From an uncultured delta proteobacterium (GTDB taxonomy: Bacteria; Desulfobacterota; Binatia; UBA9968), in assembly GCA_963804165.1 (NCBI GenBank), contig CAWDPO010000034.1, positions 1 through 64,000 on the forward strand: a stretch of DNA of 64,000 nt, given 5' to 3'. Positions 16,651 to 56,475 of this stretch are shown in pieces; the stretch's first letter is position 1; each line of letters opens with the position of its first letter. The position numbers and the translations under genes are program-made. Below the pieces are notes generated by a model, which was given only the letters and a program-made list of their open reading frames with translations, made no database searches and was not told the origin of the DNA.

Positions 16651-18243
16651 ATGGTCCATATCCGTTACAGCCGCTGGGACGGTCGAGCGCGCGATTCCCT
16701 CGATTCGGACTCCGTGTTCGACCAACTCAACGACTACATGAACGACACCGGCGACCTGCAACAGGCGATGCGCCGGCTGATGCAGAAAGGCATCAAGCAG
16801 GGCGAGAAGCAGACCAAAGGCATCGAAGACCTCCTGTCGCAAGTGGCGCGCGAAATGCGCAAGCTCTACGACGAGTACCGCTTGCAGTCGGCGATGGATG
16901 AGGTGCAGGAGCAGCTCGACTCGGTCGTCGACCAGGAGCAGCAGACTCTTCAGGAGATGGATCAAGCCGGCAAGGACGTCCAGGACAAGAAGCAATTTCT
17001 CAACGATCTGCCGGGCAAAACCAGCGAAGCGATCGAGAAGCTCACTTCCTACCGATTCGAAAACCCTCAGGCCGAAAAAGATTTTCAACAGTTGGTGATG
17101 CAGCTCGATCAGATCCGCAAGCTGGAAAACTGGCTGCGCCGCGAGGGCAGCTTGTTTCGCGGCCAGACGCCGGTGGAGTTCCAGCAATCGCAGGAGCTGA
17201 TGGAGCGCATGGAGGATCTGCGCAAGCTGGAGTCGCAGCTTTCCAGCATGCAGCTCAAAGACGTCGACAAGGATCTCCTGGAAAAACTTCTCGGCGGCGA
17301 TCCCAAGCAGGACTTCGAAGGGGTCATGCGCATGCAGTCACTGCTGGAAGAGGGCGGCTACGTGCTCGAGCAGGGCGAGCGCTTCGAATTGACGCCCAAG
17401 GGCGTGCGGCGCGTCGGCCATCTGGCGTTGCGGGATATTTATCGGCAGTTGCGCCGCGACGGCATGGGGCGGCACACGACGCGCAATCGCGGCAGCCAGG
17501 AACTGGTTCTCGAAACCAGCCGCCCCTACGTGCAAGGCGACCCCATGCACATCAACATGATTCAGACGCTCAAGAACGCGTTGCTGCACGGCGGCGGCGT
17601 GCCGGTGCGGATCAGCCCCACGGACTTTGCGGTTTACGAATCGGAGTACAATACGCGCGCCGCGACCGTGCTGCTTTTGGACATGAGTTGGTCGATGAGT
17701 TGGGAAGGGCGGTTCGCCGCGGCGAAGAAAGTCGCGCTGGCGATGGAGAGCCTGGTGCGCTCGCTTCATCCGCGCGATTATTTCGGCATCGTCGGTTTCT
17801 TCACCCGCGCCGTCGAGCTCAAAGCCAAAGATTTGCCGCAGGCGACCTGGAACATGGGCGATCCGTTTACCAACTTGCAGGATGGTTTGCACCTGGCGAC
17901 GGAAATGCTCGGCAAAAAACCCAGCGCCAACCAGCAGATGATCGTCATCACCGACGGCCAGCCGACGGCGTATTGCCGGCAGGGAAGACTTTACTGCGAA
18001 TGGCCGTTGAGCTTCGGCGGCATCAGCCAGCGCGCCGCCGAGGAAACTTTAAAAGAAGTCGAGCGCATCACGCGCAAAGGGATCACCATCAACACTTTCA
18101 TGCTCGACGACAGCCCGGTGCTGCGCGGCTTCGTCGACGATCTCACCCGCATCAACCGAGGCCGCGCTTTTTACACCCGCCCCGATCGGCTCGGAGAATA
18201 TCTCCTGGTCGATTATCTTTCGCATCAAAGAAAGAAAGTGTAA
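16651..18243 (+). CDS. vWA domain protein, partner of the AAA+ ATPase
   Basis: MIDAS DMSWSM, TNLQDGL and ITDGQPT motifs. Confidence 0.88.
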   Translation: MVHIRYSRWDGRARDSLDSDSVFDQLNDYMNDTGDLQQAMRRLMQKGIKQGEKQTKGIEDLLSQVAREMRKLYDEYRLQSAMDEVQEQLDSVVDQEQQTLQEMDQAGKDVQDKKQFLNDLPGKTSEAIEKLTSYRFENPQAEKDFQQLVMQLDQIRKLENWLRREGSLFRGQTPVEFQQSQELMERMEDLRKLESQLSSMQLKDVDKDLLEKLLGGDPKQDFEGVMRMQSLLEEGGYVLEQGERFELTPKGVRRVGHLALRDIYRQLRRDGMGRHTTRNRGSQELVLETSRPYVQGDPMHINMIQTLKNALLHGGGVPVRISPTDFAVYESEYNTRAATVLLLDMSWSMSWEGRFAAAKKVALAMESLVRSLHPRDYFGIVGFFTRAVELKAKDLPQATWNMGDPFTNLQDGLHLATEMLGKKPSANQQMIVITDGQPTAYCRQGRLYCEWPLSFGGISQRAAEETLKEVERITRKGITINTFMLDDSPVLRGFVDDLTRINRGRAFYTRPDRLGEYLLVDYLSHQRKKV

Positions 18244-18263
18244 CGCGCGCCGCGCGTTACACC

Positions 18264-18374
18264 GTTCAAAGTTCAATCGTTCAAGGTTCAAGGTCGGACT
18301 TTGGGTTCAACTGACAACCGCAAGTCAACGGTGCGGTTTTAGTCCTTGAACTTTTGAACCTTGAACCCTTGAAC
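18264..18374. repeat. ORF-less inverted GTTCAA/TTGAAC tandem-repeat element
   Basis: GTTCAAA GTTCAATC GTTCAAG GTTCAAG GTCGGACT ... AGTCCTTGAAC TTTTGAAC CTTGAAC CCTTGAAC. Confidence 0.85.
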
Positions 18375-18395
18375 TGCCGCGCGCTTTGCGCGCGG

Positions 18396-18424
18396 TTGAC
18401 TACTGAAAATAATTTCAGTATACC
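18396..18424 (+). promoter_or_regulatory. lexA promoter with overlapping palindromic LexA box
   Basis: -35 TTGACT, 17-nt spacer, -10 TATACC; palindrome TACTGAAAATAATTTCAGTA at 18401-18420. Confidence 0.7.
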
Positions 18425-18431
18425 GGATATC

Positions 18432-19040
18432 ATGCTTCCATCGCTCACCGACCGGCAAAAAGCGATCTATGATTTTCTGCTCAAGACCATTCGGGAGAAG
18501 GGTTTTGCGCCGTCGATCCACGAGATCGGCAAGCAATTCAAAATCGCCTCGACCAACGGCGTCTCCGATCATCTGAAAGCGCTGGAGAAAAAAGGCTATA
18601 TCCGCCGGGTCGGCAAGCGCGCGATCGAGATCGTCAATGCTCTGGGCAAAACGGCTTTGATCGCTACTCGCGAGGTGCCGGTTCTCGGAAAAGTGGCGGC
18701 GGGCAAACCCTTGCTCAGCGAAGAAAATATCGAAGGTGTCATTACTATTCCCGACGATATGGGCAGCGGAAAAACGTTTGCCCTCCAGGTCAGAGGCGAC
18801 AGCATGATCGACGCCGGTATCTTGGACGGCGACAAAGTGATTGTAAAACAGCAAGGCACTGCGGAGAACGGCGAGATCGTCTGCGCGGTGATCAACGGCG
18901 AGGCGACCTTAAAGCGATTCTTTAAGAAAGACGGCGTCGTTACGCTTAAAGCAGAGAATGAAAAATACGCGCCGATCATCGTTTCGGAAGGAGAGTTTCG
19001 CATCGCCGGAAGGATCGTTGGGTTGTTAAGAAAGTTTTAA
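18432..19040 (+). CDS. lexA: SOS repressor LexA
   Basis: LTDRQ and PSIHEIG winged helix; VAAG cleavage site, GDSM serine and ATLKR lysine. Confidence 0.96.
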   Translation: MLPSLTDRQKAIYDFLLKTIREKGFAPSIHEIGKQFKIASTNGVSDHLKALEKKGYIRRVGKRAIEIVNALGKTALIATREVPVLGKVAAGKPLLSEENIEGVITIPDDMGSGKTFALQVRGDSMIDAGILDGDKVIVKQQGTAENGEIVCAVINGEATLKRFFKKDGVVTLKAENEKYAPIIVSEGEFRIAGRIVGLLRKF

Positions 19041-19044
19041 AACG

Positions 19045-19584
19045 GTTCAAGGTTCAACGTTCAAAGTTCAAGGTGAAGAGAGGTCTAGCAGACTTTGAAC
19101 CTTAAACTCTGAACGTATTTGGAGGCCTTATGCACATAGAGCATTTTGAGGATCTTGAGATCTGGAAAGAGGCGCGCCAGTTAACGAAAGAAATCTATCG
19201 TGTGACTGCAGAGCCAAAATTCTCCCGCGATTTTCGCCTTCGCGACCAGATCCGAAGCGCTGCGGTTTCTGTCGTATCGAACATCGCTGAAGGATTCGAG
19301 CGAAGTGGAAATCAAGAATTCGTCCAATTTCTTTACGTTGCCAAGGGATCCTGCGGCGAAGTCCGGTCACAACTCTATGTGGCGGTTGACCAAGGATATT
19401 TCTCAGCAAACGAATTGGAGGAGTTGTTCGTTGTCGCTCAAGCGATTGTCTAGCATGATCGGCAGTTTGATCAATTACCTGAAGCGCAGCGGAATGAAGG
19501 CGGGCTCGAAACTATCCGACGATCGCAAACGGCTCAATGGACGCTCATCGGAAGACCTTGAACTTTGAACGTTGAACCTTGAAC
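19045..19584. mobile_element. Putative insertion element: four-helix-bundle gene bracketed by a perfect 30-bp inverted repeat of heptamers
   Basis: 19045-19074 GTTCAAGGTTCAACGTTCAAAGTTCAAGGT is the exact reverse complement of 19555-19584. Confidence 0.65.
19130..19568 (+). CDS. Four helix bundle protein (23S rRNA IVP/TIGR02436 family), frameshift about 19430
   Basis: FEDLEIWK, DQIRSAAVSVVSNIAEGFER and AKGSCGEVRSQL motifs; C-terminal helix in ORF 19305-19568. Confidence 0.92.
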
Positions 19585-19599
19585 GGCTCATGGTTAGTC

Positions 19600-20199
19600 A
19601 TGACTTTTGCCGCACAAAAATTTCCTGTCGCTGTTCCTTCGCAAACACCCTGGACGCTGAGCGAAGTCGCGGGGCGGCTGGTGGAGATCTCCGGCTCGAC
19701 GGCTTCCGCCGCGCTGACGCTCACTTTCGTTTTGGTCAGGGAAGCGCAGGAGCGCGGCGAGCCGGTGGGTTGGGTGACCTCGGCGGAAAGGTTTTTCTAT
19801 CCGCCCGATGCGGCTCAAAACGGTACGGATTTAACGACGCTGGTCGTGGTGCGTTTAAGTCATGCTGAAAGTATCGCGCGGGCCGGTGAAAAGCTTCTGC
19901 GCTCCGGCGGCTTCGGCGTCGTCGTGCTCGATCTCGGCGCCGCCGATATTCCCATGCCGCTGCAGACGCGCTTGACCGGTCTTGCCCATCGTCACCACAC
20001 GGCGCTCGTCTGCCTCACGGAAAAAGAGAGCAGGGCTTTTTCCTTAGGCTCGCTGGTTTCGCTGCGCAGCCCACGCTGAAAAGAAACGCGCTGACGGATA
20101 ACCGCTTCGCCTGCGCTTTGCGCGTTCTTAAAGACAAACGGCGCGGCCCCACCTGGCATTATGAAGAGACTCTACACCGGGCCGGCTGGCTTGTGTTGA
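19600..20199 (+). CDS. imuA: ImuA-like RecA-family protein (frameshifted)
   Basis: GRLVEISG, FYPPD, LLRSGGFGVVVLDL and RVLKDKRRGP motifs; lies between lexA and imuB. Confidence 0.75.
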
Positions 20200-21681
20200 T
20201 CTGCCGGCTTTTCCACTGCAGCTCTTGCTTCGGCGCCATCCCGATTGGGGCGGCTTATCCGGTGGCGGTGGTGGCCGAAGACAAGCCGCAGGGTTTGCTG
20301 CTCTGGGTCAATGAAAAAGCCCGCCGGCAGGGCGTGCTTCCCGGTTTGCGCTATGCCGCGGCGTTTTCTCTAGCGTCGGCGCTGCGCGCCGGCGAAGTCG
20401 CGCCGGGTGAAAGTAAAAAAGCCATTACCGACTTGGCTCATCATCTCATGCGCTTTACTCCCGAAGTCGAACCATCGATTGAGGAGCCCGGCGTTTTCTG
20501 GCTCAACGGCGCCGGTTTGCAACATCTCTACGCTTCGCCGCAGCAATGGGCCTACGCTATTCACAAGGATTTGCGCGCCCGAGGCTTCACCGCAAGCTTG
20601 GTGGTCGGTTTCACGCGCTTCGGCACTTATGCCGTCGCCAAGGCGAAAGAGGGTATCACGATTTTTCGCGATCCCGTTGAAGAGCGCAGCGCCGCGCGTG
20701 AAGTGCCACTCAATCGATTGAATATCGAGCCCGCGTTTCGCGATGTGCTTTTCAAGCTCGGCATTAAAACCGTCGGCGGTTTGCTCACGTTGCCGCCGGG
20801 CGGGCTGCGCGAGCGCTTCGGCAAGGAAGCGCATCGGCTCTACCGCATGGCCGCCGGCGATCTCTGGACGCCGCTCGAGCCGCGCGCGCCGGACGAGCCG
20901 GCTCGGCAAAAATATATTCTCGACGATCCGGAAGACGACACCACACGGCTGCTGTTTTTAATTAAACAATTACTTCATCCGCTGCTGGCAACGCTGGCGC
21001 AGCGTCATCAAGCGCTGGTCGCGCTCTGGTTTTCTTTATTGATTTATCGCAACGACTGGCTCAAAGAGCCGCTCCGTCCCGCGGCGCCGACGCTCGACGC
21101 GGCGCAGATATTAGATCTTATCCGCCTGCGCCTGGAGTCGCTGCGGCTTCCTGCCGGCGTGGTGGAAATCGAATTACGCGCCGAAGCCTGCGCCGCCACT
21201 AGCGAGCAGCTGCGCCTGTTTGCCGAGCAACCGACGCGCGATCTCGACGCAGCCAATCGCGCTCTGGCGCGTTTGCGCGCCGAATTCGGCGACGAGTCTG
21301 TCGTCTATGCCAAGCTCACCGACGGACATTTGCCTGAAGCTAGATTTACCTGGGAGCCTTTGAGCCGCGTCAAGCTGCCCCGAAACGATTTGAACGACTT
21401 GAACGGCTCGACTCGCCAAAGTGTTGGTGCGCCGCGTCGCCGCCAGGCCGATCCGCCTCGCCGGCGGACCCTATCACTCGCACGAAGACGGCTGGCTGAT
21501 TCTCGGTCCTAAACACGGCACCATCGATAAGCTCACCGGCCCCTACGTCTTCGCCGGCGGCTGGTGGAATAGAGAAATCCAGCGCGAATACTACTACGCC
21601 GAAACCCGCCGCGGCGATCTGCTCTGGCTTTATTATGACCGGGTGAGAAGAAGGTGGTTTTGGCAAGGCGCCGTCGAATGA
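20161..21681 (+). CDS. imuB: ImuB-like inactive Y-family polymerase (frameshifted)
   Basis: ARRQGVLPGL, FTPEVE, LGIKT, ERFG and HLPEA motifs; C-terminal GPYVFAGGWW...REYYY...WFWQG. Confidence 0.85.
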
Positions 21682-21688
21682 CGGCGAC

Positions 21689-22221
21689 GTTCAAAGGTTC
21701 AACGGTTCAAACGTTCAACGTATTTCGGACCAGAGTGCTAAAACTAACTAAGTGGAGGTTTGTATGGCCGTGAAAGTGTTCGAAGACCTGGAGGTCTGGA
21801 AAGAAGCTCGCCGGTTAACTCAAAGAATCTATCAATTAACAAAGAATGAAAATTTCTTAAAAGATTTTGCTCTAAGAGATCAAATCCGGCGGGCCGCCGT
21901 CTCAGTTATGTCCAACATCGCCGAAGGCTTCGAGCGCGGCGGCAATCAAGAATTCGTTCAATTTCTTTACGTTGCCAAGGCTTCATGTGGCGAAGTGAGA
22001 TCCCAGGTTTATGTGGCTCTCGACCAGAGTTATGTGGCGAGCACAGAAGTCGACGAGCTTACAAACTCTTTCAAACGACTATCGAGCATGATCAGCAACT
22101 TCATAACCTACCTCAGGAAAAGTGGAATGAAAGGCGAGAAATTCAGAAAACCTGAATCGTCATCAAGGCGCCAATGATTCCGATTCTGTCGTTGAACTAT
22201 TGAACCTTGAACGTTTGAACG
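21689..22221. mobile_element. Second repeat-bracketed four-helix-bundle element
   Basis: Left arm GTTCAAAG GTTCAACG GTTCAAAC GTTCAACG (21689-21720); right arm CGTTGAAC TATTGAAC CTTGAAC GTTTGAAC (22190-22220). Confidence 0.6.
21764..22177 (+). CDS. Four helix bundle protein (IVP/TIGR02436 family)
   Basis: FEDLEVWK and DQIRRAAVSVMSNIAEGFERGG motifs; RBS GGAGG. Confidence 0.93.
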   Translation: MAVKVFEDLEVWKEARRLTQRIYQLTKNENFLKDFALRDQIRRAAVSVMSNIAEGFERGGNQEFVQFLYVAKASCGEVRSQVYVALDQSYVASTEVDELTNSFKRLSSMISNFITYLRKSGMKGEKFRKPESSSRRQ

Positions 22222-22242
22222 AACACTTTTAAGGAGCCTCCT

Positions 22243-22542
22243 ATGACCACGCAAAGTAACAAGAAGATCCACCCGGGCAGGGTATTGTTAGAAGACTTCC
22301 TCGCCCCAAGAGGCGTCAGCGTCTGGCATCTAGCCAGAGACATCGATGTTCCCGCGCGACGCATCTACGAGATCGTCCAGGGACAACGCCCGATCACCGC
22401 CGACATCGCCCACCGGCTTGCGCATTACCTCGGCATGTCGGAGCGCTACTGGCTCGATTTGCAGGCGCGGTACGATGGGAAACGAGATGAGAGATTGCCG
22501 AAGGAGTTTTCGAGGAAACAGTCGCTTCGGTACGCCGGATAA
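22243..22542 (+). CDS. higA: HigA-family antitoxin (no adjacent toxin)
   Basis: HPGRVLLEDFL, RPITADIAHRLA and YWLDLQARYD motifs. Confidence 0.85.
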   Translation: MTTQSNKKIHPGRVLLEDFLAPRGVSVWHLARDIDVPARRIYEIVQGQRPITADIAHRLAHYLGMSERYWLDLQARYDGKRDERLPKEFSRKQSLRYAG

Positions 22543-22605
22543 GACCGGGTCCGCTTCTATTGGTGCCGCGCGATACAGCAATATAGAGTCGCATGACCAG
22601 GGAGA

Positions 22606-23472
22606 ATGTTTGTGGCGAGTATCGAACCGCTAAAGTCGCTGGATGATGACGGATTGCCGACCCCAGAGATTGGAGCTTGGGGTGAAGAGAAATACCGCCA
22701 TGTCCAACTCTGTGCTTCGCTCTTCATAAAATCTATGCGTAGCAAGTGGGATGCTCTCGTTTACTTGGACTTATTCGCTGGTCCTGGACGATCTCAAATT
22801 CGCGCAACAAGAAGGATCGTTAGTGCGTCACCTCTTCTGGTCCTTGGAATGCCTGAAGCATACGACAAATATATCTTCTGTGAACAAGATAAGAATTGTG
22901 CTGAAGCACTCGAAACGAGGTGCCGGCGAGACTTTCCCAACAGAAACGTGAAGATTGTCACCAGGAATGCCAACGCATCGGCGGATAAAATTATTGCGGA
23001 GATGCCACGCCCCGGATGGAATCAGAAAGTCCTAGGATTTTGTTTTCTCGATCCATTTCAATTGCAGAACTTGCATTTTTCAACAATAAAAACTTTGTCG
23101 CAACGATTTATGGATTTTCTGGTACTTATTCCTTCTAGCATGGATGCTAATCGCAACGAACAGAATTACATCCAGCCTCGGAACAAGACGCTGGAGAATT
23201 TTGTCGGCAACCCGGATTGGCGTACTCGTTGGAACAAGGAAAAGGTGTCCGGTAAATCATTTGAACACTTTGTCGTTGAAGAATTTGGTCGCTCGATGCA
23301 GACACTTGATTACATCGATACTGGGCTAAAAGAAGCGATTATGATTCGATCGGATGATAAGAACCTGCCGCTATATCGACTTGCGCTGTACAGCAAAAAT
23401 AAATTGGGTTCCAAATTTTGGAAAGAAACAAGGAAATATTCAGACCCGCAAGTAGGCTTCGAATTCAAGTGA
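22606..23472 (+). CDS. tcmP: Three-Cys-motif partner protein (SAM-methyltransferase-like fold)
   Basis: [19 protein letters not shown] and FLDPF motifs; directly upstream of DUF5131. Confidence 0.8.
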
Positions 23473-23479
23473 GGTAAGT

Positions 23480-24221
23480 ATGGCTCAAGACTCCGCGATT
23501 GAATGGACTGACGCAACCTGGAACCCGGTAACCGGATGTACGAAGATCAGTCCCGGATGTAAGAACTGCTACGCGCACCGGATGGCGCGGCGGTTACATG
23601 CGATGGGGCAAGTGAGGTACAGGAACAATTTTGCCGTCACTCTACAACCCGATGTACTTGACCAGCCGTTACGGTGGAATCAGCCGCGGAAGATCTTTGT
23701 CAATTCGATGAGCGATCTATTCCATCCTGATGTGCCACTCGAATTCATTCAGTCCGATTTTTGATGTTATGGGAAAAGCTCATTGGCATACGTTCCAGAT
23801 TTTAACCAAGCGATCGGAGAGGCTTGTCGAGATCGCGGGGAGACTGCCCTGGCACGACAATGTTTGGGTGGGCGTGAGCGTTGAGAACGCGGACTATACT
23901 TATCGCATCGAGCATTTGCGGAAAGTGCCTGCGTCCGTTCGATTCCTATCAGTCGAACCGTTGTTGGGACCTATTTCTCGATTGCCGCTTCAGGGAATCC
24001 ACTGGGTCATTGTCGGCGGAGAGTCCGGCCCTGGAGCGCGCAATATGGATCCACGATGGGTGAGGAAAATTAGAGATCGGTGCATCGCTCAAGGTGTTCC
24101 ATTTTTCTTCAAACAGTGGGGAGGAACAAGAAAGAAACTAACCGGTCGCGAACTGGACGGCAGAACATGGGATGAAATGCCGGAGATAAATTCGAATAGC
24201 TCAGAACGAGTTTTGGGTTAA
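23480..24221 (+). CDS. DUF5131 (phage Gp37/Gp68) radical-SAM-like protein, frameshift about 23755
   Basis: [45 protein letters not shown] and FFFKQWGG motifs. Confidence 0.92.
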
Positions 24222-24662: not shown

Positions 24663-25772
24663 ATGCCGTCTGTGGAACAGAACAAGCTCAAACGCGCTGG
24701 TACTGGTTTACGGGCGTTAGATCCGCGCGAGCTGGCCTGGGTTTACCCTATTCGCTCTCTACCAAAGCGCAGGAAGCACGGTGTATCTGATCGACATTGA
24801 GGGCAACGTCGTCCACACCTGGCAGATGCCTTACCCTGCTCAATATGGCTGGCTCACCGAGCGGGGCACGCTCTTCTACAATGGCAAGACACCGGAAACA
24901 TCAGACCGCTTTATCTCGGGTAAACCTTATAAAATAGGCGCCGTAATGGAAGTCGATTGGAACGGCCGCGTGATGTGGGAGGTGCAGCATCCAGACCACC
25001 ATCACGACGGTATACGTCTACGGAATGGCAACGTGCTGCTTCTCTGCCTGGCTCAACTCCCACGTGAGCTGGTTCCGAAAATCAAAGGGGGGATGCCAGG
25101 GACTGAGCATAACGGGGAAATGTACGGAGATTATCTGGTCGAGATGACGACTGACGGGCGAATTGTCTGGGAGTATCGTACCTGGGAGCATCTGGATCCG
25201 GAAACGGATCGCATCACTGCAATCCAGGAGCCGCGGGACGAGTGGACGCATGGAAACGGCCTGGCGGAATTGCCAAACGGCGACATCGTTGTGAGCTTTC
25301 GCACGATCTCGACTGTCATCATTATCGAGCGAAAGACCGGCACGATTATCTGGAAGCTCGGCGCGCCGCCGCTGTGTGGTCAACATGCTCCGACGCCTCT
25401 GCCGAATGGTAACCTGCTCATCTTCGACAACGGGCCGCACCGGTTGGACCATTCGTATGCCTTTTTCACGGGTAATCGAGGTCGAGCCGGCAACCAAGAA
25501 AATCATCTGGGAGTATCGGGAGAAAAGAGAAAGCGATTTCTTCAGTCCTAGGATTTCAAATGCTCAGCGGTTACCGAACGGTAACACGATGATATGCGAA
25601 GGGGATTTCGGCCGCCTATTTGAGGTTACGGCCGGTGGGGAAATGGTCTGGGAGTACGTCAATCCCTATTTTGGCGGGACCGCCAAACGCGCAAAACAAT
25701 CGAGTATTCCGCGCCTACAGATACAGCGCAGAGGAGATCGCGAGAGCAAAAGCGACGGTAGGTGCTGTGTGA
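24663..25772 (+). CDS. Aryl-sulfate sulfotransferase (ASST)-like protein, frameshifted; cassette
   Basis: HHHDGIRLRNGN, WTHGN, GQH, FDNG and SNAQRLPNGNTMICEG motifs. Confidence 0.8.
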
Positions 25773-56436: not shown

Positions 56437-56475
56437 GTTCAAGCCGTTCAAAACGTTCAAGTAGTTCAAATCGTT
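56437..56475 (+). repeat. Solo 9-bp-period GTTCAA array
   Basis: GTTCAAGCC GTTCAAAAC GTTCAAGTA GTTCAAATC GTT. Confidence 0.8.

Follow-up and report, generated by a model that had tools for sequence, protein, structure and literature searches.

An IVS-like IVP gene cassette framed by inverted heptamer arrays in a putative SOS operon of an uncultured Binatia bacterium

The DNA analysed here, referred to as the window, is a stretch of 64,000 nucleotides (positions 1 to 64,000 of contig CAWDPO010000034.1, assembly GCA_963804165.1, forward strand) from an uncultured delta proteobacterium of the class Binatia. It contains a unit that reads as an SOS operon, lexA-[IVP]-imuA-imuB-[IVP], in which two genes of the PF05635/TIGR02436 (IVP) family are each enclosed between inverted arrays of short tandem repeats. 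Each gene with its pair of arrays is called a cassette: cassette 1 occupies the lexA-imuA junction, and the whole of cassette 2 (21689-22220) lies downstream of imuB. The features of the unit are listed below with their coordinates in the window, strand and basis.

18432..19040, +, lexA (Peptidase_S24 2.8e-32, LexA_DNA_bind 5.1e-20)
19045..19074, +, cassette 1 left arm, GTTCAAG GTTCAAC GTTCAAA GTTCAAG GT (perfect complement of the right arm)
19092..19114, -, degenerate internal arm, forming a short hairpin with the left arm, 24-nt loop (repeat scan)
19121..19125, +, GGAGG ribosome-binding site, 4 nt 5' of ATG 19130 (read from the sequence)
19130..19568, +, IVP gene 1 (PF05635/TIGR02436), frame broken near 19431
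19555..19584, -, cassette 1 right arm (inverted-repeat scan)
19600..20079, +, imuA, RecA-like (PF00154 7e-08; orthologues)
20118..21681, +, imuB, IMS family (PF00817; tblastn; ORFs 20118-21512 and 21421-21681)
21689..21718, +, cassette 2 left arm, four GTTCAA units of period 8, 7 nt after the imuB stop
21764..22177, +, IVP gene 2, intact, ATG 21764, GGAGG at 21754-21758 (PF05635 4.1e-36, TIGR02436 3.1e-34)
22192..22220, -, cassette 2 right arm, imperfect (inverted-repeat scan)

The arms of cassette 1 (19045-19074 and 19555-19584) are 30 nt long, 100% complementary and 480 nt apart, and each consists of four GTTCAA cores with single variable bases between them. The lexA open reading frame (ORF) ends at 19040 and the left arm begins 4 nt later; the ATG at 19600, 15 nt past the end of the right arm, was taken as the imuA start because congeners show a similar N-terminus there. 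An earlier note on this DNA had described a perfect 30-bp inverted heptamer repeat around an IVP gene in this position, and the repeat scan agrees with it. The weaker internal arm that the note placed at about 19100-19114 was located at 19092-19114, where it pairs with 19045-19067 at 83%. The internal arm, the ribosome-binding site and the IVP gene lie between the arms, the IVP gene being the sole gene enclosed. The GTTCAANGTTCAA pattern occurs 10 times in the window, compared to 0 times in each of 100 shuffles. The flanks of cassette 1 (AACG and GGCT) show no target-site duplication.

In this assembly the IVP1 reading frame is split by one extra base near 19431, and the C-terminus runs on in the other frame to a stop at 19566-19568, within the right arm. 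The break is probably an assembly error, or else a very recent change, since two short-read metagenome contigs from close relatives have exactly one base fewer at 19431 and the orthologue at a related locus, L012, is intact (147 aa). The arms at L012 are imperfect, and the perfect arms of cassette 1 suggest a recent homogenisation of one arm against the other.

Both IVP proteins score far above the profile cut-offs (33.8 bits for PF05635 and 24 bits for TIGR02436), with 116.6 bits (E 7.5e-34) and 102 bits (E 1.8e-29), respectively, for IVP1, and 123.9 and 117 bits for IVP2. IVP2 is homologous to XCC0516 (PDB 2GSC, an entry with five chains; E 1e-13), a protein described as a homopentameric toroid in PMC4990558. 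The dN/dS ratio is 0.05-0.06 in four pairs of IVP genes and 0.21 in the closest pair; by this measure, the protein is under strong purifying selection. IVP ORFs are reported in rRNA insertions of bacteria of the candidate phyla radiation (10.1101/2024.02.27.582315), 18 IVP genes are reported within cas loci (PMC3936711), and PF05635 is linked to, or said to resemble, Avd (PMC10053308), the accessory protein of diversity-generating retroelements (DGRs).

The surroundings of IVP genes were compared in two sets of loci. Set 1 comprised 79 loci with IVP2 relatives from public genomes, 78 of them testable, carrying the labels Binatia, Acidobacteriota, Verrucomicrobiota, Planctomycetota, Nitrospirota, Ignavibacteria, Chloroflexota, Kiritimatiellia and others. 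Set 2 comprised 60 IVP loci found in the genomes of 22 relatives, 19 belonging to the same genus and 3 to a sister family, together with the four strong matches of this genome. Four loci common to both sets were merged by substring matching, which brought 142 cassettes to 138 distinct ones. A flanking inverted repeat, counted if z >= 4 against shuffles, was present in 73 of the 78 set-1 loci and, in a uniform re-run over both sets, in 123/142 cassettes (120/138 distinct). Among 300 random small ORFs of this genome taken as controls, four reached z >= 4, none of which also scored >= 30. According to Tandem Repeats Finder, 119 of the 142 cassettes have an array with a period of 5-12 on each side; of 258 arrays, 168 have a period of 7, 50 a period of 9 and 30 a period of 8, and the median copy number is 4.3 (quartiles 3.6 and 4.9). 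Upstream arms have G > C in 87 cassettes versus 25 with the opposite bias, with 11 ties. Each of the five PF05635 matches of this genome lies between inverted tandem arrays, with four unit types among them (GTTCAA at two of them, AGGCNNG at C45, TGGAGT at C2 and GATTTT at a decayed copy on C37). The framed layout is the norm for the PF05635/TIGR02436 family. The layout that the earlier note had called IVS-like (after the intervening sequences, IVS, of 23S rRNA), an IVP gene with its own ribosome-binding site and terminal inverted heptamer arrays, matches that of the Coxiella IVS and recurs at the 120 loci counted above. A literature search that left subscription-only papers outside its reach yielded no account of IVP genes flanked by inverted tandem arrays anywhere but in rRNA, and the framed architecture outside rRNA is essentially undescribed. 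In another genome, a 23-kb region (G018:C13:1773837-1796930, loci L190 and L191) holds more than 10 IVP matches, several of them decayed, interspersed with toxin-antitoxin-like genes and with fragments resembling reverse-transcriptase genes.

The arms differ in kind even within one genus (AGGCANT, GGGGTNA, CGTGNT, GAGGATN, ATGGCNN, TGGAGTN and others), and every kind belongs with one particular IVP subclade; G014 alone has at least seven of them. Cassette pairs with a protein identity of >= 60% have 0.31-0.52 of their arm 6-mers in common, compared to about 0.015 for pairs below 60%. The corresponding value is 0.014 for 71 pairs from the same genome with less than 40% identity, and 0.336 for 81 pairs from different genomes with at least 55% identity. 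The correlation between arm and protein was reached in 0 of 2000 permutations, in a test that is inflated by kinship. It is the protein clade, and not the host genome, with which the repeat type is inherited. Between the orthologous post-imuB cassettes of this genome and G003, for which coding dS is about 1.0, 1 of 48 core positions has changed, versus 5 of 11 spacer positions (Fisher p 5e-4). Throughout the IVP1/IVP2 clade the core is unchanged at periods 7, 8 and 9, and exactly four cores are present in 13 of 19 upstream arms. These alignments show repeat cores that are conserved, apparently by selection, and spacers that drift.

An IVP gene lies directly 3' of lexA at 11 distinct loci. The IVP proteins of loci L012 and L016 are 77% and 73% identical to IVP1, the corresponding figure for LexA being 78.7%, and their arms are likewise of the 7-nt GTTCAA type. 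Vertical descent of the post-lexA cassette fits these data, because the L012 IVP has diverged about as much as LexA and its arm type is the same. In the closer relatives G020 and G024, with LexA proteins 96.5% and 91% identical to that of the window, the same junction holds an IVP only 61-66% identical to IVP1 and framed by 9-nt GTTCCA arrays; here the cassette has been replaced by one of another lineage. In three further congeners (G023, G001 and G012), only a short array hairpin or a remnant is found at the lexA-imuA junction. The earlier note had proposed a search for empty junctions in relatives, and such junctions exist: in the sister family f3, 7 of 7 inspected junctions are free of arrays, with 0-90 nt between lexA and imuA, and the three congeners supply gene-less hairpin alleles. 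Together, these loci show that cassette 1 is an old resident, which in some relatives has been reduced to a gene-less hairpin or has given way to another lineage. The note's idea of a selfish element inserted between cistrons is therefore retained in part: the layout does match that of an IVS, but the insertion is not a recent one, the cassette having been inherited with lexA.

The post-imuB cassette is present in nine other congeners; the unpublished genome G005, which is not counted there, enters tallies only, and no conclusion rests on it. At L006 and L011 (G014 and G019), lexA with its IVP cassette lies 16-20 kb from imuA-imuB with theirs, so that both halves of the split operon keep their own cassette. 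A case for horizontal transfer, based on the "Verrucomicrobiia"-labelled locus L017 with arms identical to those of G024, was rejected, as L017 matches L092 with 100% identity along 2664 nt. The two are the same contig under two labels (L092 comes from a congener), and one of them has been either mislabelled or misbinned.

Repeat arrays of the cassette type are far more widespread than the cassettes. The genome (7.5 Mb in 46 contigs, 81% complete) contains 233 arrays of at least three GTTCAA units, mostly without a gene. Crude ORFs take up 85% of the genome, and 177 of the arrays fall outside them. The GTTCAA arrays form a 7-8-nt and a 9-nt period class, each with a consensus that extends beyond the cores, and many short hairpins contain one TGGAAC unit in the 3' arm. 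The commonest array families of 7-9-nt period are GTTCAA (226), TGGAGT (75), GTTCCA (38) and GATTTT (20), and each of the four is also an arm type found in IVP cassettes, either here or in congeners. In the window's genus, PF05635 IVP genes were found in 23 of 24 genomes (including G005) and GTTCAA arrays in 9 of 9 genomes searched, with 7 to 297 pattern matches; in family f3, IVP genes were found in 0 of 11 genomes and arrays in 0 of 4 genomes searched. Two long-gap pairs of GTTCAA arrays elsewhere in the genome were discarded: at C17:109095-109624 the small gene between two separate array elements is an unrelated one, and C34:138886-139223, a region of nested arrays, contains no IVP.

The orientation of the arrays was analysed with 176 solo arrays, defined as those without a strict partner within 700 nt. 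The GTTCAA strand agrees with the sign of the local GC skew in 141 of the 176 (84/107 in the 7-8-nt class and 57/69 in the 9-nt class), agreement being 2650/4511 for long ORFs and 36/53 for TGGAGT arrays. Where the flanking genes and the skew are in conflict, the arrays side with the skew in 18 cases and with the genes in 5. The same polarity is seen in G015, with agreement in 28 of 30 solo arrays from 20 sampled 20-kb windows that had been picked by array position before the skew was known. The leading strand conventionally has G > C, and by this usual convention the GTTCAA strand is the exposed lagging-strand template. On these counts, array orientation follows replication rather than transcription. 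This polarity is an argument that single-stranded DNA is involved, either when the arrays spread or when selection acts on them; the earlier note's reading contained no such DNA-level stage. A genome-wide family of 233 arrays, mostly gene-less and with a strand that follows GC skew, is new here.

At the RNA level, the predicted fold has a terminal stem closing each of the two cassettes, in both the minimum-energy and the centroid structures. The fold energies are -199.2 and -166.1 kcal/mol for cassettes 1 and 2, with z values of -5.0 and -3.4 against shuffles. In a search of sequencing runs for the interval 18300-22400, the matches were small shares in DNA runs, with no RNA run among them. In soil and rhizosphere contigs, "joints" that skip 478-492 nt across cassette 1 were considered as excision products and rejected; they are gene-less hairpins of other loci or organisms, because their sides are only 22-29 nt long and other letters lie between them.

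With moderate confidence, we interpret cassette 1 as an IVS-type four-helix-bundle cassette that is long resident, carries cognate recognition arrays, is tolerated between cistrons and belongs to a replication-oriented array family. The term IVS-like is justified by the layout; strict membership of the IVS fails on location. In the operon transcript, the arms would pair into a stem of ~30 bp closing off the cassette, and by analogy with rRNA IVS this stem may be a substrate of RNase III, which would render lodging between cistrons harmless. The conserved cores, about four per arm, could be the recognition units of a ring-shaped (pentameric) IVP protein, each cassette lineage then being a cognate protein-repeat pair. 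Spread, turnover and arm homogenisation would take place at the DNA level, via a single-stranded stage at the replication fork. A bolder proposal, which we offer tentatively and consider rather improbable, is that IVP rings and clade-specific heptamer arrays constitute an unrecognised class of transposase-free propagating elements, in which about four cores would be bound on single-stranded DNA at the fork, gene-less arrays would be non-autonomous derivatives, and the rRNA IVS would be a special landing site.

Several observations weigh against the interpretation as a long-resident cassette with cognate arrays. Arrays outnumber IVP genes by about 50 to 1 (233 versus 5), and they are abundant in G004 (293 pattern matches, 92% complete) and G022 (165, 86% complete), neither of which has an IVP2-like match above 39% identity to the IVP2 query; arrays can therefore persist without a cognate gene. 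The association of arrays with IVP genes that the earlier note proposed to test accordingly holds from the side of the gene, as 5 of 5 IVPs are framed, but not from the side of the arrays. The co-variation of arm and gene would also follow from simple linkage, and the usual number of cores per arm is four and not five. The orientation tests depend on gene calls that are crude longest-ORF picks in an assembly with frameshifts. With respect to the stem, mismatches between the arms show no excess of sense-strand G-U pairs (154 sense versus 137 antisense), so the data do not single out an RNA stem, and in cassette 2 the spacers of one arm do not complement those of the other, so continuous pairing is not maintained there. 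The note's picture of a gene looped out on a long double-stranded RNA stem is supported by the predicted folds that close the cassettes, but the arm mismatches lack the wobble signature of a sense RNA.

The alternative that survives best, itself unlikely in our judgement, is that the GTTCAA arrays are an independent host family, resembling repetitive extragenic palindromic (REP) sequences or miniature inverted-repeat transposable elements (MITEs) and moved by another enzyme, with the IVP gene a mere passenger in the hairpin loop, without recognition of the repeats. The numerical excess of arrays, their abundance in G004 and G022 without a cognate IVP, and the many short hairpins that share a consensus including the TGGAAC unit all speak for such a family, as do the 18 Y1_Tnp matches in the genome and the turnover of gene-less array hairpins at fixed intergenic sites. 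A passenger gene is hard to reconcile with the framing of IVPs in many phyla by units that follow the protein clade, with at least seven types in G014, or with the four commonest array families of 7-9-nt period all being IVP arm types; family f3, moreover, lacks both IVP (0/11) and arrays (0/4). As for the enzyme, no GTTCAA array lies within 300 nt of 16 of the 18 Y1_Tnp genes, on which ground a system of REP-associated tyrosine transposases (RAYTs) was rejected. An insertion sequence or MITE in the usual sense was also rejected, the IVP gene being the only ORF and the AACG/GGCT flanks showing no duplication. About nine of the 18 Y1_Tnp matches lie in ORFs that, at 299-324 aa, greatly exceed the usual length of an IS200 transposase. 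Tandem arrays of other kinds, GGGTCGG-like and TAAACTCT-like, flank the match at C6:100235.

Lower still in probability is the view that IVP is a trans-acting nucleic-acid-binding regulator with the arrays as its binding sites at gene ends, the sites at its own gene being autoregulatory and nothing being mobile. Strong purifying selection on the protein, conserved cores with free spacers, about four units per arm for a ring oligomer and the long retention of cassettes after lexA and after imuB are compatible with this view, and so is the position of the arrays, with 177/233 outside crude ORFs covering 85% of the genome and solo arrays more often downstream than upstream of a co-oriented gene. 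Against a regulator, orientation tracks replication and not transcription (18 versus 5 in conflicts), G004 and G022 have arrays but no cognate IVP, different cassette lineages occupy the same junction in close relatives, and the family is also found inside rRNA helices and cas operons. That the IVP gene is the Avd accessory gene of a DGR, or a remnant of one, as the resemblance of PF05635 to Avd noted in PMC10053308 might suggest, is highly improbable and was rejected, since the only three RVT_1 matches lie on contigs C9, C12 and C17, with none on the window's or other IVP contigs, and the repeat scan of 18000-22600 contained no template/variable repeat pair.

The closest known counterparts of the long-resident cassette interpreted above are the 23S rRNA IVS of Coxiella burnetii (helix 45) and Leptospira, as presented in PMC4990558. 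They share with the cassettes an S23p/PF05635 ORF, a length of ~430-540 nt, a stem of 28-30 bp, tandem heptamers 5' of the ORF with strain-variable copy number, and the absence of a transposase (PMC4990558). In the Coxiella IVS in particular, RNase III cuts a terminal stem of 28 bp, and GACAGAT heptamers that vary between strains lie 5' of an S23p ORF; the same source relays an older idea of IVS mobility (PMC4990558). The IVS are inserted in helix 25 or 45 of 23S rRNA, whereas the cassette described here lies in an mRNA operon, between lexA and imuA. Excision by RNase III is a feature of Coxiella, the cassette here being known from its sequence and predicted fold, and the Coxiella ORF is described in PMC4990558 as decaying and probably untranslated, whereas IVP2 has a ribosome-binding site and a dN/dS of about 0.05. 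The 23S_rRNA_IVP genes of cas operons similarly lie between cistrons of an unrelated operon, for example cmr3/cmr2; in the consulted part of PMC3936711 they are treated as having a possible Cas-associated function, and flanking arrays go unmentioned there.

Avd is a pentameric ring that binds nucleic acids. The cassettes here, unlike Avd, have no adjacent reverse transcriptase and no template/variable repeats. The two have a homologous four-helix-bundle fold in common (PDB 4DWL, cited in PMC10053308). REP/REPIN-RAYT systems and MITEs resemble the present family in comprising hundreds of short intergenic hairpins and a few gene-bearing copies, but the gene enclosed here is not HUH or DDE, and the arms are tandem 6-nt cores with free spacers. 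The STRR repeats of cyanobacteria are similar intergenic heptamer repeats. The TAACTGA repeats of Beggiatoaceae, cyanobacteria and Bacteroidetes are likewise intergenic tandem heptamers, with 2-6 per set and a patchy distribution; they differ in being direct and not inverted, and no link to IVP genes is made in PMC4679880.

PF05635/TIGR02436 is a very large family, spread over many phyla, whose function has been unassigned since its discovery in rRNA IVS. Clade-specific repeat arms, selected cores and replication-oriented arrays lead to testable ideas, namely cognate binding, RNase III processing and fork-linked spread. IVP arrays may account for some of the puzzling intergenic heptamer repeats in several bacterial groups. 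For annotators, IVP genes inside cas, SOS or hydrogenase operons would be lodgers and not components of the pathway.

Four further features of the window concern the region upstream of lexA and a distant array.

18264..18291, +, 5' arm of a gene-less hairpin, four GTTCAA units, between a vWA gene and lexA
18346..18374, -, 3' arm of the gene-less hairpin upstream of lexA
18402..18419, no strand, palindrome ACTGAAAATAATTTCAGT between -35-like and -10-like hexamers (read from the sequence)
56437..56469, +, solo GTTCAA array of 9-nt period (array scan of the window)

The hairpin site upstream of lexA is occupied by other array types in congeners. At 12 related loci the palindrome ACTGAAAATAATTTCAGT is conserved a short distance upstream of lexA; it is probably the LexA operator (LexA box) of the lineage. 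A scan of 18000-22700 for promoters and terminators gave nothing above chance within the cassettes.

In this assembly, the 3' part of imuA and the start of imuB are in shifted frames, and imuB spans at least two frames. Genes are split between frames at 19431 (IVP1), 20079-20190 (imuA/imuB), 21421-21512 (imuB), 23730-23764 (DUF5131) and 25376-25551 (arylsulfotransferase), the two halves of the DUF5131 gene matching profile positions 2-93 and 91-243. Such splits across the window are likely indel errors of the assembly, because the independent short-read contigs are one base shorter at 19431. Past cassette 2, the interval 22243-24221 holds a small HTH_3 gene, a 288-aa ORF without a Pfam match and the DUF5131 gene, the last two of which we take to resemble a known partner pair.

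Three minor observations concern arrays elsewhere. In G000, solo GTTCAA arrays at C2:254067-262900 and C12:8210-46900 are repeatedly followed by the same module of ~40 nt with a palindrome of the form CGTTTCGGGAATTCTCGAAACG, which looks like the promoter/operator of a multi-copy gene family; in C2, the arrays preceding this module are those that run against the GC skew. A run of ~1.1-kb repeats at C17:317994-331427 of the same genome has a GTTCAA hairpin with a loop of ~29 nt after each repeat. Summed depth in four contig sets from soil and rhizosphere was several-fold higher over the arm regions (18985-19121, 19533-19669 and 21588-21724) than over the genes (407 versus 0-151 in X2), and GTTCAA array hairpins therefore appear to be common in these samples.

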